This document shows, piece by piece, positions 3,702 through 14,177 of a stretch of 64,000 bases of DNA. The notes under the pieces were generated by a model. It did no database searches, had not been told where the DNA came from, and saw nothing but the letters and a program-made list of their open reading frames with translations. Origin of the DNA: Desulfuromusa sp. (lineage in GTDB: Bacteria; Desulfobacterota; Desulfuromonadia; Desulfuromonadales; Geopsychrobacteraceae); contig JAZBPC010000077.1 in NCBI GenBank assembly GCA_036351455.1, forward strand, positions 1,387 through 65,386, read 5' to 3'. Numbering within the stretch: position 1 is the stretch's first letter; every line of letters starts with the position of its first letter. A program made the position numbers and the translations under genes.

Positions 3702-5174
3702 TTAAGCGATGGCTTTCATCCCTTGCATAGCATCCCGTAAAACTTCGCCAACTTCTTCAACCAGGTGGTTACGAATTTCGGCATTGATTTCTACCAGTTC
3801 CTGATTGTTGACTTGATTATCTTTGTTGTTTAGCCCTTTGCCAATAACATCCGTCTCGATAGAGGACATGAAATCTTTCAAAAGTGGGACACAGGCATGG
3901 GCAAATAGATAGCAACCATATTCTGCTGTGTCGGAGATGATACGGTTCATTTCATAAAGCTTTTTGCGGGCAATGGTGTTGGCAATCAATGGTGTCTCAT
4001 GGAGTGATTCGTAATAGGCTGACTCCGGTTCTATTCCTGAAATCACCATGGTTTCAAAAGCGAGTTCAACACCAGCTTTTACCATAGCAACCATCAGAAT
4101 TCCTTTGTCAAAATACTCCTGTTCAGAAATCTCGCCAGCACCTTCAGTTTTTTCAAAGGCGGTCTGCCCGGTTTCTTCACGCCATTTCAGGAGATTTTTA
4201 TCGTCATTCGCCCAATCTTCCATCATGGTCTTAGAAAACTCACCAGAAAGAATATCATCCATGTGCTTTTCAAATAGCGGACGCATGATCTCTTTGAGTT
4301 CTTCAGCCAGATCAAAAGCTTCCATTTTTGCCGGGTTGGAGAGGCGATCAAGCATATTGGTGATTCCACCATGCTTGAGAGCTTCGGTAATGGTTTCCCA
4401 CCCTTGTTGGATCAGTTTAACCGCCCAGGCGGCATCAATTCCATCTTCTACCATTTTATCAAAGCAAAGCAGTGAACCTGCCTGCAACATTCCACAGAGG
4501 ATTGTCTGCTCACCCATCAGGTCAGATTTGACTTCTGCGACGAATGATGATTCCAGTACTCCGGCACGATCACCGCCTTGAGCAGAGCAGAGTGCTTTGG
4601 CAATTTCCAGACCATCGCCATTGGGGTTGTTTTCGCCATGGACAGCTATCAGGGTCGGGACACCAAATCCACGTTTGTATTCTTCACGGACTTCAGTGCC
4701 AGGACATTTTGGGGCAACCATGATGACTGTCAGATCTTCGCGGATCTCAGTCCCTTCTTCAACAATGTTAAATCCATGAGCATAGGAAAAGGTTGCTCCT
4801 TGACGCATCAATGGGACAACGGTGTTGACAACATCCGTGTGCTGCTTGTCAGGAGCCAGGTTCATGACAATATCAGCAGTTGGGAGCATCTCTTCGTAAC
4901 TGCCGACTTTGAAACCATTCTCTGAAGCATTGATGAAGGACTGACGTTTTTCCGCAATAGCATCTTTGCGCAGGGTGTAAGAAACATCCAGACCACTGTC
5001 ACGCATGTTCAGACCTTGGTTCAGTCCTTGGGCTCCACAACCAACGATGACAATTTTCTTCCCTTTTACGTATTCGCAACCGGAAGAAAATTCGTTAGCA
5101 TCCATAAAACGGCAGGTGCCGAGTTCCTGCAATTTGCGGCTGAAGGGAAGTGAATTGAAATAATTCTGGCTCAT
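3702..5174 (-). CDS. ilvC: Ketol-acid reductoisomerase, long (class II) form
   Basis: NYFNSLPF...[39 protein letters not shown]; 490 aa with a duplicated C-terminal domain, like E. coli IlvC. ATG at 5174 after an AGGAG RBS. Confidence 0.95.
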
Positions 5175-5254
5175 CAAATTTCTCCTTATTTAAGTGGGTG
5201 TTTTAAACAAAATAATATTTACATTAGCAATATAGCACAAACTACCCTAGACAA

Positions 5255-5306: not shown

Positions 5307-5324
5307 ATTGTGCGGGAGGTGCGT

Positions 5325-6209
5325 ATGGATATTCAGGAACTCAAAATATTTTTGACAACAGCCGATCTACTTCATTTTGGTCGCGCCAGTCAAGCCTGCA
5401 ATTTAAGCCCATCAGCATTAACTCGGACCATTCAAAGGTTAGAGGAGCAGTTAGGCCAAGTTTTGTTTGAGCGGGATAACCGTACTGTACGCTTATCGTA
5501 TGCTGGGAAACAATTTTACCATTATGCCAGGAAAGCTTTGCATGATTATATCAGTTTTCAAAGTTCGCTTACGTCTCCTCGAGAAATAGCAGGGACTCTC
5601 TCACTTTATGCATCGATTACTGCTGTCTACAGTCTGCTCCCTGATCTCCTGGAGGCTTTTCGTAAGGCATATCCGGATGTTCACCTGGAGTTACGGACTG
5701 GCGCTGCAGAAAAAGCGGTGATTCAGGTGGAGTCAGGAGAAATTGATATTGCAGTTGCCGCGCTACCTGATCGTCGCAACGTAGGGGTTGAATTTCTCCC
5801 TATTATGACGACACCACTGATTTTTATAGCCGGAAAATCTCTTGCGAACTCGATAGTTGAAAGAGGCGATGGCACTCTTGATTTAAATCAGCTTCCGCTG
5901 GTACTGCCTCAATCCGGGTTATCCCGGCGGCGACTGGATAAGTGGTTAAAGAAAAATCGAATTGTCCCTAATGTTAGTTCAGAAGTGTCGGGAAATGAAG
6001 CTATCATTCCTATGGTACATCTGGGTTGCGGAGTTGGGATTGTTCCACAGTTGGTGCTTGAGCGCAGTCCCTTCCGAACTGATGTTGTTGTCTTGAAGCA
6101 GGCTCCACAGCTGGAACCGTATATCGTCGGGCTGTGTTCAACAAAAAGAAATTTGCAAAAAGCGGTTGTAAAAGCACTATGGCAACTTGCTGAAAATCAA
6201 CCTGTTTGA
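5325..6209 (+). CDS. ilvY: LysR-family activator IlvY
   Basis: LHFGRASQACNLSPSALTRTIQRLEEQLG LysR HTH, and SLYASITAVYSLLP similar to IlvY. Divergent from long-form ilvC. ATG 5325 follows GGAGGT. Confidence 0.9.
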   Translation: MDIQELKIFLTTADLLHFGRASQACNLSPSALTRTIQRLEEQLGQVLFERDNRTVRLSYAGKQFYHYARKALHDYISFQSSLTSPREIAGTLSLYASITAVYSLLPDLLEAFRKAYPDVHLELRTGAAEKAVIQVESGEIDIAVAALPDRRNVGVEFLPIMTTPLIFIAGKSLANSIVERGDGTLDLNQLPLVLPQSGLSRRRLDKWLKKNRIVPNVSSEVSGNEAIIPMVHLGCGVGIVPQLVLERSPFRTDVVVLKQAPQLEPYIVGLCSTKRNLQKAVVKALWQLAENQPV

Positions 6210-6231
6210 AGTCTCATCTATCCCAAATTTA

Positions 6232-6453
6232 TCAATTTGATCTTAGGATGTCCAAAATTCTTTGTTCAGTTGGGAACTCTCCCGTCTTTTTTTTCGAATA
6301 GACCAGTTTTTCATCAACAACAATCTCAAATACTCCGCCACTGGAAGGAATCTGTTCAGCCGTAACCTGAAACTGCTGTTGTATTTTTTCTGCCAGACTG
6401 GCAGCACGTGGGCGGTAGCCTCAACTATTACAATATTCAATACTAATTTTCAT
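6232..6453 (-). CDS. SelW/SelT/SelH (Rdx) family selenoprotein, 73 aa, CxxU motif
   Basis: Translated by hand: MKISIEYCNS(U)GYRPRAASLAEKIQQQFQVTAEQIPSSGGVFEIVVDEKLVYSKKKTGEFPTEQRILDILRSN*. In-frame TGA at codon 11 (6423-6421). The Rdx motifs I.IEYC..U and GG.FEI..D..L.YSKK..G.FP flank the TGA. AAGGA RBS upstream. Confidence 0.9.
6390..6404 (-). promoter_or_regulatory. Candidate bacterial SECIS hairpin
   Basis: On the minus strand CUGCC-AGUCU-GGCAG begins 16 nt after the UGA and resembles the apical hairpin of the E. coli fdhF SECIS (UGCAGGUCUGCA). Confidence 0.65.
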
Positions 6454-6474
6454 CTAGTTGTCCTTATCAGGGTT

Positions 6475-7146
6475 TTAGCCAAAGAGATTTCCCGTTCTAC
6501 CAATCTGATGAGTTCGTGAATCTTCGGCCTCTTTTTGCAAGAGATCAAAAGCAATGTCTTTATTCATCTTGCCAATTTTTTTTATCAGATCAAATGGAAT
6601 ATGTTCAAAATCGAACTGTGATTTTAAATCATCGATAATCTTAACCAAGAGCTGCGCAGCCATTTCTGCATCAGCCAGCGCCCGATGGAATTGGCTGTTT
6701 ACAGGTATCTCTTTGTAGCGCACCAGAGTTTCAAGCTTGTAGTTGATGACATCAGGATAAAGTCTGCGTGCAACTTGTAAGGTACAACCAAAATTTAATG
6801 GCCGTTTTTTACCAATATGTTCAAGTTCTGCTTCGAGGAACGACCGATCAAATGAAGCGTTGTGAGCAACCAGAGGGCGGGCGCTGATAAACTTTAGAAA
6901 TTGCCCCATGACTTCTGGTGCAGGGGGGGCTTCATCCAACATGGCATTGGTAATTCCGGTGATGGTTTCTATTTCACGGGTGACGAGGAAGCCCGGATTG
7001 ACGAGGCTCTGAAAGCGGTCAACAATGACCTGATCACGGAGTAACACGGCCCCGATTTCAATAACTTTGTCCCCGTTGGCCGGGTAGAGGCCAGTTGTTT
7101 CAAAATCGAGGACGATGATGGGTTCTGCTTGGTTGAATGATTGCAT
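6475..7146 (-). CDS. DEDDh 3'-5' exonuclease (DNA polymerase III epsilon-like)
   Basis: ExoI LDFETTG, ExoII VAHNASFDRSFL, ExoIII HRALADA. Confidence 0.9.
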   Translation of the reverse strand: MQSFNQAEPIIVLDFETTGLYPANGDKVIEIGAVLLRDQVIVDRFQSLVNPGFLVTREIETITGITNAMLDEAPPAPEVMGQFLKFISARPLVAHNASFDRSFLEAELEHIGKKRPLNFGCTLQVARRLYPDVINYKLETLVRYKEIPVNSQFHRALADAEMAAQLLVKIIDDLKSQFDFEHIPFDLIKKIGKMNKDIAFDLLQKEAEDSRTHQIGRTGNLFG

Positions 7147-7293: not shown

Positions 7294-8310
7294 ATGGATT
7301 TATTGATGGCTACAAAGCGTAAGCTTGGGCGTATGCCTAAGAAATATAGTCAGGCAGCCCGGTTACATGATTTGATTCGGATTCTTGAGGCTCGTTATGG
7401 AGCTACCGTGGATGAATTGGTGGAAGAATGTCAGGTGACCAGGCGGACTATTTACCGTGATCTCCAGGCAATCTTGGATGCAGGTTATCCTCTGATCAGT
7501 GAACGACAGGATGATGGGCACGTTCTCTATAGCTTTGTTTCTGGTTTTAGTAAGATCCCACCAATTACTTTTTCACTTGAGGAATTGATGACCCTCTATC
7601 TGTGCCGTGGTCAATTGGCTTTTTTGCATGGAACCCCTTTTCAGGACGATCTTGAGGAAATTTTTGCCCGGATTCGTTCCAGTATGCCACCGCGGAGTGT
7701 GGCCCATCTGGAGCGGATTGCTGAAGCTTCGTCGCCAAGATTTCTTGGTTTTAAAGACTATTCTCAAAAGTATCAACTGCTTCAGGATTTGCGTCAGGCA
7801 TTGTTGTTACAACGCCGCTGCGTGATTCATTACTTACCGGCAAGACGAGAGCAATGCTCTTATCAGATCGACCCGTACACGCTACTATTTTTTAAAAACG
7901 GACTCTATATCGGAGGCTATGCTCATAATCGACAGGCACTGCGGTTATTCGCTGTCGAACGGATAGAAAAAGTAGAATTGCAGCCTGAAAGATTTGAGGT
8001 CCCAGAAGATTATAGGGTTGAGGATCTGACCGGAACAGCTTTTGGTTTGATTGCTGAAGATGAATCGCAGCAACTGGAATTGTTCTTTGATAAAGAAGTT
8101 GCTCATCTTATCCGTGAGCGGGTTTGGCACCCTGATCAGATGATTGAGGAACAAGAAGATGGCGCTCTGGTTATCCGTTTCAGTGCCAGTGGAGATAAGG
8201 AAATTCTTGCCTGGCTCTATTCGTTTATCCCTTTTGTCCGTGTTGTTGGTCCAGAATCGCTGCGAAAGAAATTTGCTGCAGGCCTGAAGGGCGCTTTATC
8301 TTTTCAATAG
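7294..8310 (+). CDS. WYL-domain transcriptional regulator (HTH_11 + WYL + WCX, YafY/PafB-like)
   Basis: N-terminal wHTH ELVEECQVTRRTIYRDL; IDPYTLLFFKNGLYIGGY...RLFAVERI WYL core; C-terminal WHPDQ...WLYSF WCX region. Confidence 0.9.
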   Translation: MDLLMATKRKLGRMPKKYSQAARLHDLIRILEARYGATVDELVEECQVTRRTIYRDLQAILDAGYPLISERQDDGHVLYSFVSGFSKIPPITFSLEELMTLYLCRGQLAFLHGTPFQDDLEEIFARIRSSMPPRSVAHLERIAEASSPRFLGFKDYSQKYQLLQDLRQALLLQRRCVIHYLPARREQCSYQIDPYTLLFFKNGLYIGGYAHNRQALRLFAVERIEKVELQPERFEVPEDYRVEDLTGTAFGLIAEDESQQLELFFDKEVAHLIRERVWHPDQMIEEQEDGALVIRFSASGDKEILAWLYSFIPFVRVVGPESLRKKFAAGLKGALSFQ

Positions 8311-8393: not shown

Positions 8394-8771
8394 ATGATCT
8401 GGTTATCCCCGGCAAATGGTACAAAAGAATGCAGCATCTACTTTGACATCCGTGATATAGATTTGCAATTCTCTGAAGGTAGATCAACGGGCATTGTTCG
8501 CGGACTGGTCGGCAATGGATCCTGTGAGCTCTGGGGGGAGGTTTTTCTGGGGCATAAGGAATTCGCCCAGATTCTCCCGGTATGGACTGAAACAGGAGTG
8601 ATGGAATCTTTTTCCGATGAGGTTGATGAGACGTTGCTCCTGCATGAGATGTTATCGGCTGTGAAAAACATGCTTCTCAGGGTAGGTTCAATAAGAGAGA
8701 ATATTTCATACAATTCGGTGCAAAACTCAGAAGTTTCTGCGCACCCTTTAACTCATCATCTGGCCGCTTAA
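8394..8771 (+). CDS. Hypothetical protein
   Basis: 125-aa ORF with a strong AAGGAGG RBS; no family recognised. Confidence 0.6.
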   Translation: MIWLSPANGTKECSIYFDIRDIDLQFSEGRSTGIVRGLVGNGSCELWGEVFLGHKEFAQILPVWTETGVMESFSDEVDETLLLHEMLSAVKNMLLRVGSIRENISYNSVQNSEVSAHPLTHHLAA

Positions 8772-12935: not shown

Positions 12936-14177
12936 ATGACCATGAACAGATTCCTTGCGATAATTGTATCTCTGTTTGCCTTGCTCTCCTTATGCCTGTT
13001 GTCAGCCTGTGGGGGAGGTGGGGGTGGGGATTCAAGCGGAACCAGCAGAACAGCGGATGATGGAGGACCTTCTGTGGTAACAACTTTATCCGGGACAGTT
13101 GCCGATGGTTATCTTCGGGATGCGCGAGTCTTTCTCGATCGGAATAATAATCGTGTCTATGACAATGGAGAACCGACGGCACAATCAACAACAGGAGGGA
13201 GCTACTCTTTAAATGTAAATCCTGGTGATGGAAACCTGTATCCTGTTGTAGCACAAGTTGTCGCGGGGCAAACAATTGACGAAGACAGTGGAGCACCAGT
13301 TGTTCATAGCTATTTGCTGGAATCATTACCCGGCCACTGGCAGTTTGTGTCTCCTTTGACGACCTTGGTAACGTTGGAGAGGGATAAAAACCCATCCTTT
13401 TCTCAACAGCAGGCTGAAATTTCAGTTCGGTCTCAGCTTGGGATCGCAGACTCCGTTTCCCTTTTTGCTGATTATATTACTTTCGGGAGTGTTGATGCTG
13501 ATTTAGCTGCAGAATACAATCGCACCCACAGGGTAGCGCAAACTGTTGCCAATCTCATGGGGAGTCTGCGAGCCAGTATCTCTCGGAATCTGGGTGGGGT
13601 CATTAATAATTCTGAACAGCGGTTGGTCTCTTATATGGTGAGTGATCAGATCCTCTGGCAGTCGGCGCTGATCGAAGAGGCCTTCAACAACGAACGCAAC
13701 CTGGGTTCGTTGGTCGATGTTGTTTCTTTAACCAATGATATTGCTGGTGAAATTAATACAGTAAGTTTGGACATCGCTTTGTTAGCTCTTTATCAGCAGA
13801 GGGTAGAGCAAAACTTTGATATCTGGGATATGTTGCCTCCTCAAGTTCAAAGTCTATCTCCGCCAGCAGGCGATACGGCTTCAGTTGGGACGATTATTTC
13901 TCTCTCTTTTGATGAATTTCTTGATGAGACTTTATTGGATGACAATTCCATTGAACTATCAGGTCCTAATGGCCTGGTTTCCGGCAGTCTGAATTATGAC
14001 TCTGAGCATAAGAGGTTGACATTCATACCGGGCCAGCTTCTGATACCTTTCAGTAATTATCAGGTGACAGTCAATGGGCGGTTAGCCGATATCCTTGGTA
14101 ATTCCCTAGGAGAAAACATAACCTGGACGTTTACAACAATCTTTGATCAAATGCCGCCGCCACTTCCGGATTTCTGA
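12936..14177 (+). CDS. Lipoprotein with an N-terminal SdrD-B/carboxypeptidase-regulatory-like domain and a C-terminal Ig-like (Big_5/SbsA-type) domain
   Basis: Lipobox LLSAC followed by a Gly run; LSGTVADGYLRDARVFLDRNNN...GEP; ISLSFDEFLD...LTFIP...YQVTV...DILGN...WTFTT. Starts 7 bp after the adhesin stop. Confidence 0.75.
   Translation: MTMNRFLAIIVSLFALLSLCLLSACGGGGGGDSSGTSRTADDGGPSVVTTLSGTVADGYLRDARVFLDRNNNRVYDNGEPTAQSTTGGSYSLNVNPGDGNLYPVVAQVVAGQTIDEDSGAPVVHSYLLESLPGHWQFVSPLTTLVTLERDKNPSFSQQQAEISVRSQLGIADSVSLFADYITFGSVDADLAAEYNRTHRVAQTVANLMGSLRASISRNLGGVINNSEQRLVSYMVSDQILWQSALIEEAFNNERNLGSLVDVVSLTNDIAGEINTVSLDIALLALYQQRVEQNFDIWDMLPPQVQSLSPPAGDTASVGTIISLSFDEFLDETLLDDNSIELSGPNGLVSGSLNYDSEHKRLTFIPGQLLIPFSNYQVTVNGRLADILGNSLGENITWTFTTIFDQMPPPLPDF

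Follow-up and report, generated by a model that had tools for sequence, protein, structure and literature searches.

In the Sargasso Sea data, the SelW-like proteins of bacteria were listed as a known selenoprotein family and outnumbered every other one, with 48 genes that carry a CxxU motif, and a redox function was suggested for the bacterial family in the same study (PMC1088965, 2005). A survey of bacterial genomes added that, among organisms that use Sec, very few Cys homologues of SelW-like proteins occur (PMC1794560, 2006). Solved structures exist for several bacterial members of the wider Rdx family, namely Atu0228 of Agrobacterium (2fa8) and the proteins from Pseudomonas fluorescens (2obk), Vibrio cholerae (2p0g), Streptomyces (SAV_2001, 3dex) and Bordetella (2ojl). 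These share the fold and the place of the redox motif with the protein described here, but they carry CxxC in about 100 residues and are 27-35% identical to it, whereas the present protein has 73 residues and Sec. Mouse SelW (2npb) belongs to a eukaryotic gene with its SECIS in the 3'-UTR, in contrast to the SECIS found here within the coding sequence. Among bacterial elements, the fdhF SECIS of Escherichia coli, GCA-GGUC-UGC, serves as the reference for SelB-binding hairpins, and its G23 and U24 contact SelB.

The window considered in this work, a stretch of 64,000 nucleotides from contig C77 of a draft assembly (3.13 Mb, 244 contigs, 94% complete), contains on its minus strand at 6232..6453 a SelW-like (Rdx family) selenoprotein gene of 73 codons plus a stop, recognized by its translation, by family HMMs and by its predicted fold. 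The gene resembles the known bacterial SelW-like selenoproteins in its match to the family HMMs, in a CxxU motif near the N-terminus, in its small size and in a SECIS with a G-containing loop right after the UGA; it differs from them in nothing categorical, being one order's orthologue in a genus-specific exonuclease context. The preliminary description had named a start, a ribosome-binding site (RBS), a frame, an internal TGA and a hairpin, and all of these are present where it placed them. The start codon ATG (6453..6451) follows a Shine-Dalgarno-like AAGGA (6461..6465, minus strand) after a 7-nt spacer, both as read from the sequence, and the frame runs MKISIEYCNS-TGA-GYRPRAASLAEKI...GGVFEIVVDEKLVYSKKKTGEFPTEQRILDILRSN with a single internal TGA. 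Cys8, the first residue of the CxxU motif, is encoded by TGT at 6430..6432 (minus strand), and codon 11, the in-frame UGA that provides the U of C8-N-S-U11, lies at 6421..6423 (minus strand). The terminal stop is again a TGA (6234..6232) and is immediately followed by TAA (6231..6229); the product, with codon 11 as U, reads MKISIEYCNSUGYRPRAASLAEKIQQQFQVTAEQIPSSGGVFEIVVDEKLVYSKKKTGEFPTEQRILDILRSN.

None of this is visible to mechanical ORF calling, for which the locus offers on the minus strand only an out-of-frame ORF of 65 aa (6243..6440), while the list holds no ORF of at least 40 aa in the true frame; this in itself means that no canonical in-frame start follows the TGA. The public protein collection holds relatives as stubs of 42-54 aa under the name 'selenoprotein W-related protein', and stubs of this length, present in JGI-type annotations of relatives, speak for ordinary termination at the UGA, with a 10-residue peptide as the product or an internal start giving a truncated Rdx domain without the redox motif. 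However, such a reading is very improbable. No ATG, GTG or TTG lies in frame 3' of the internal TGA that would yield at least 40 aa, and the 62 conserved codons beyond it thus could not be expressed another way; moreover, the ten upstream codons are kept along with the downstream part, and so are the RBS spacing, the start codon and Cys8, and a truncated domain would, according to the structural model, lack strand beta-1 and the active site. We therefore return to a frame that is read through at codon 11.

Profile searches, in which the TGA was written as Cys, place this read-through protein in the Rdx/SelW-like family on every in silico feature. The Pfam profile PF10262 (Rdx), proposed at the outset as a search that should read through the TGA, matches both sides of it, with an E-value of 3.5e-22 (78.8 bits against a cut-off of 22.6) over residues 2-71 of 73; the part 3' of the TGA alone gives 2.4e-14, from which it follows that the ten codons before the TGA contribute about 25 bits. 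The NCBIfam model TIGR02174 'CXXU_selWTH' scores 71 bits (cut-off 34.2), and the NCBIfam equivalog NF041051 'SelT/SelW/SelH family (seleno)protein' (SelTWH_Campy) scores 94.5 bits (cut-off 88). Sequence matches to solved Rdx proteins were obtained with 2fa8 (E 3e-10) and with mouse selenoprotein W, 2npb (1.2e-7). The alignment with 2fa8 sets 'YCTQCNW' against 'YCNSUGY'; the TGA thereby pairs with the second Cys of the CxxC that the solved homologues carry, which is the place in the Rdx CxxU/CxxC motif to which the UGA had been assigned.

An AlphaFold2 model, built on ten sequences (pLDDT 92.7, pTM 0.81), predicts a thioredoxin-like beta-alpha-beta-beta-beta-alpha fold in which strand 3-8 is followed by helix 14-28, strands 32-37, 42-46 and 49-53, a short helix 54-57 and helix 63-72. 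In this model the C8-N-S-U11 motif is situated between strand 3-8 and helix 14-28 and aligns with the CTQC of 2fa8. That same structure is the top Foldseek match (TM 0.91, rmsd 1.1 A), and 2fa8, 2obk, 2p0g, 3dex and 2ojl together have TM values of 0.88-0.92 with an rmsd of 1.1-1.6 A; thioredoxins come lower in the list, and mouse SelW (2npb) reaches TM 0.66.

A six-frame search of 40 relatives at E <= 0.001 detected the gene in 28 of them; loci were inspected in 27 relatives (members of the genus, of its family and of further families in the order), and the orthologue alignment comprised 28 sequences. Exactly one in-frame TGA is found in every one of these (28/28, across genus, family and order), always at the CxxU position, and the Cys8 codon is equally invariant (28/28). 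Conservation extends to both sides of the TGA, with residues 1-10 reading M-K-I-S-I-E-Y-C-N-S/Q and residues 12-61 being conserved too; the invariant residues are I5, C8, Y13, A17, G40, F42, S53, K54, T57, G58 and P61. When contigs of other genomes were scanned with a pattern carrying Cys at the Sec position, only two Cys-form loci were returned, both from Streptomyces. The uniform presence of Sec forms in the alignment agrees with the scarcity of Cys homologues noted in the earlier survey (PMC1794560). A Cys codon TGT or TGC is one base away from TGA and the assembly is a draft in 244 contigs, which would allow for an Rdx pseudogene or a sequencing error with no protein made; yet the same TGA recurs in independent assemblies across the order, under purifying selection on both sides, in a genome with the full Sec machinery, and the apex of the SECIS is kept at synonymous sites (see below). 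One shared TGA with conservation on either side of it excludes this explanation for practical purposes, and we attach hardly any probability to it. The significance of the locus as a gene with a recoded UGA thus derives from the protein match across the TGA and from the comparison with 27 orthologues, the hairpin alone being unremarkable in a single-sequence fold.

A Sec-encoding gene implies selA, selB, selC and selD elsewhere in the genome, as had been anticipated, and selA, selB, selD and tRNA-Sec were all found. The genes selA (587 bits), selB (353 bits) and selD (362 bits) are adjacent on contig C67, and a tRNA-Sec with anticodon tca is present on contig C18 (detected by aragorn, and by Rfam RF01852 with 69.3 bits); all four score above their curated cut-offs. 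Across the order, selA was found in 27 of 28 good-quality genomes. It was not found in six relatives that have the TGA form, five of which are 63-84% complete and the sixth of which (G005) is rated complete and consists of 470 contigs.

Reading of the TGA as Trp, or as another standard amino acid, by a reassigned code or a suppressor tRNA might be supposed from the full-length relatives in the database (P0001-P0006, P0009 and P0010), at least six, which bear W at the Sec position. However, these entries stem from short contigs, of 0.6-1.3 kb for six of them and of 0.6-1.6 kb overall, and the combination suggests that gene callers, presumably metagenomic ones, chose a translation table in which TGA is Trp. 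In the organism studied here, 1352 open frames reach 300 codons or more, and 484 of them (36%) stop at TGA. It is thus an ordinary stop, which excludes a reassigned code, and the SelW-like gene itself ends on TGA. Furthermore, both the family profile and the solved homologues have Cys or Sec at this position, and the genome contains a dedicated tRNA-Sec and selB. Decoding as a standard amino acid is therefore extremely improbable, and Sec remains the preferred reading of codon 11. The expectation that annotation pipelines truncate or miss such genes proved well founded, as the database relatives are either stubs or W-bearing full-length calls.

The candidate SECIS is a hairpin, CUGCC-AGUCU-GGCAG, at 6390..6404 (minus strand), 16 nt after the UGA and conserved in 28/28 orthologues. 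On the minus strand it consists of CTGCC (6404..6400), AGTCT (6399..6395) and GGCAG (6394..6390), with the apical G and U at 6398 and 6397, and it codes for A-A-S-L-A. Bacterial SECIS elements have been described as stem-loops that directly follow the UGA and whose apical loop is small and includes a G (PMC1088965), and the AGUCU hairpin has this form. Nevertheless, a single-sequence fold of the 71-nt stretch was not better than those of shuffled sequences (z-score 0.21), and an Rfam covariance search with the hairpin returned no SECIS family, even at E-values up to 10. For want of a significant z-score we relied on comparative evidence; the Rfam result was not counted against a SECIS, because short, clade-specific bacterial elements perhaps fall outside that library.

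Hairpin columns were counted in a gap-free alignment starting at the TGA. Pair 20-34 is C-G throughout (n=28) and pair 23-31 is C-G or U-G. Pair 21-33, which joins the wobble positions of two Ala codons, is U-A in 16 sequences, C-G in eight, U-G in two and A-U in one, and the remaining sequence has a C-A mismatch. The covariation score and the count of two-sided changes lie above those of all 500 shuffles and of all slid controls. This covariation is supportive and not decisive, as it concerns a single covarying pair in related sequences, and part of the shift from U-A to C-G could stem from the relatives' GC content. The hairpin also overlaps the conserved A-A-S-L-A peptide, and its conservation is thus partly at the protein level. 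Stronger evidence comes from the synonymous sites of the apex, which are frozen, together with the recurrence of the same apex in a rhodanese-like gene described below. Codon 18 is GCC in all 19 cases in which it encodes Ala, and its third base is C in 28/28; codon 19 is AGU in all 26 cases of Ser, and the G-U of the loop (G26, U27) is invariant in 28/28. Codons 18 and 19 have zero codon entropy, in contrast to 1.1-2.2 bits at all other four- and six-fold degenerate codons of the gene, the remaining Ser and Ala codons among them. The preliminary description of a SECIS-like hairpin 16 nt after the UGA thus holds, and the hairpin behaves as a conserved RNA element by virtue of its covarying pair, its frozen apex and its presence in a second gene.

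In comparison with the fdhF SECIS, the element found here (GCC-A-GUC-U-GGC) is likewise short, directly follows the UGA and has a G-U-C at its apex that is closed by an A-U pair, and the invariant G26 and U27 have their counterparts in G23 and U24 of fdhF. It differs in that the apex lies 3 nt farther from the UGA, that there is no obvious bulged U and that the stem, with 5-6 pairs in this genome, is shorter.

We scanned the genome ourselves for TGA codons next to Cys in coding-like frames and obtained 26 candidates. Besides the SelW-like gene, Pfam matches across the TGA were found only for a DsbA-like and a rhodanese-like gene. Three other candidates looked, on visual inspection, like ordinary genes extended upstream (resembling hemB, GTP cyclohydrolase and a MarR regulator), a small ORF on contig C111 was without a Pfam match, and the other 19 were dropped on local context and hairpins alone. 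The DsbA-like gene (C121, ~13350-13949, plus strand, 199 codons) matches PF01323 with E 2.9e-31 spanning the TGA and encodes a UxxC motif, IFYDYV-U-PWC. The rhodanese-like gene (C121:15358-15786, minus strand, 143 codons) matches PF00581 with E 9.4e-14, again spanning the TGA, and encodes a protein that begins with a signal-peptide-like segment and contains the motif VTYC-T-U-PSEG.

The rhodanese-like gene carries the hairpin CAGUGCC-AGUCU-GGCACUG. Its 11-nt apex, GCCAGUCUGGC, recurs unchanged in the SelW-like gene, and in both genes it begins exactly 21 nt after the first base (T) of the TGA. The 11-mer GCCAGTCTGGC has four copies in the 3.13-Mb genome (both strands), and two of the four are those behind the TGAs of the SelW-like and rhodanese-like genes. 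Relatives keep the rhodanese-like TGA in at least 15 cases, and the hairpin was read in ten of them, giving 11 loci with the genome studied here. At eight of these 11 loci the apex is intact or has one loop base altered, at the other three (L059, L060 and L062) one change results in a stem mismatch, and two of the hairpins show a compensatory U-A to C-G change. Since A-S-L-A is encoded over the hairpin in both the SelW-like and the rhodanese-like gene, it is the SECIS that appears to dictate the peptide sequence; the order's fixed apex GCC-AGUCU-GGC, 21 nt after the UGA, could be what forces A-S-L-A into both proteins.

The selD gene (C67:9829-10755, plus strand) has an in-frame TGA of its own (...SRSSG-U-AAKIG...), followed after 27 nt by a hairpin, CUGACUCAG-GUU-CUGAGUCAG, the small loop of which also contains G-U. 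The in-frame TGA and the hairpin indicate that SelD here contains Sec; its gene sits in one cluster with selA and selB. The only PF00384 (molybdopterin oxidoreductase) gene in the assembly (C193:26772-28016) is without an in-frame stop, and it thus seems that no Sec-containing formate dehydrogenase is detected in this 94%-complete draft. With the SelW-like, Sec-SelD, DsbA-like and rhodanese-like proteins, the selenoproteome has at least four members, and the Sec trait seems to serve SelD and small redox proteins in this genome.

As judged from its sequence and those of its relatives, the stretch 6453..6232 is almost certainly a true SelW-like gene that encodes Sec by means of a functional SECIS. 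Selenium would be inserted at the UGA at 6423..6421, the hairpin would be bound by SelB, and the protein would be redox-active. By analogy with the established bacterial Sec pathway, from which the individual steps are taken, SelA would make Sec-tRNA(Sec) using selenophosphate from SelD, and SelB carrying Sec-tRNA(Sec) would dock on CUGCC-AGUCU-GGCAG through the apical G-U while the ribosome stands at the UGA, delivering Sec before release factor 2 terminates translation. At the codon-74 UGA, which has no hairpin, termination would take place, with the adjacent UAA as a back-up. In the finished protein, the Cys8-Sec11 pair would cycle between a selenenylsulfide and the reduced Cys/Sec form, and the product is most likely a small thiol/selenol oxidoreductase.

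The neighbourhood of the gene has been conserved over a short evolutionary range. Upstream on the same strand lies a gene for a DEDDh exonuclease of the RNase_T family (6475..7146, minus strand; PF00929, E 5.4e-31), the stop of which is 21 nt before the SelW-like start; no promoter-like site was found in this 21-nt gap, and the proximity of the exonuclease stop makes co-transcription of the two genes probable in this genome. A query with the exact exonuclease sequence returned no database record. A WYL-WCX-HTH regulator gene (7294..8310, plus strand) diverges from the exonuclease gene, and regulators of this class are sensors of DNA damage or phage attack. Downstream of the regulator, an ORF of 125 aa (8394-8771, plus strand) has no Pfam match. 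On the other side, a LysR gene (5310..6209) converges on the SelW-like gene and is paired with ilvC (3702..5177) in what looks like a classic divergent ilvY-ilvC pair. On the plus strand at 6271-6294, inside the 3' part of the SelW-like coding sequence and 62 nt past the LysR stop, we observed a terminator-like hairpin, TGGGAACTCTCCCG, followed by the T-run TCTTTTTTTT; this is a consensus match only, and the hairpin may terminate the convergent LysR transcript.

The exonuclease gene adjoins the SelW-like gene at 18 loci of relatives, 17 belonging to the genus and one (L032) to another genus of the same family, with gaps of 12-342 nt. In two genus members the exonuclease is absent, with the regulator still beside the SelW-like gene. 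At the level of the order this context is not conserved and the surroundings are heterogeneous, so that guilt by association is confined to the genus and the family. To our knowledge, a DEDDh exonuclease and divergent WYL context has not been described for a SelW-like gene. The SelW-like gene would, in this genus, be the second cistron of an operon with the exonuclease gene, and it is tempting to imagine that the SelW-like protein and the nuclease cooperate in a stress or defence response; this proposal, put forward together with that of an order-wide fixed SECIS apex in unrelated genes, we regard as unlikely.

The find is correct and is of an already known kind, as the family and the annotation problem it poses have been known for about 20 years. 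The locus was introduced as a 'hidden' selenoprotein, and this is accurate in the sense that ORF calling missed it, but its novelty was overstated, since a curated equivalog exists and the literature dates back to 2005. Family, motif and recoding mechanism are by now textbook material, and the gene thus raises no new biological question; only two points are mildly unusual, namely that within the genus the gene is linked to a WYL-regulated exonuclease gene and that across the clade unrelated genes share a fixed SECIS apex. Its main importance lies in annotation, the SelW-like gene being invisible to standard ORF calling, and gene calls with TGA as Trp are a systematic source of wrong selenoprotein sequences. 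For the biology of the family, the nuclease partnership, if true, would give the SelW-like proteins of bacteria their first functional handle.
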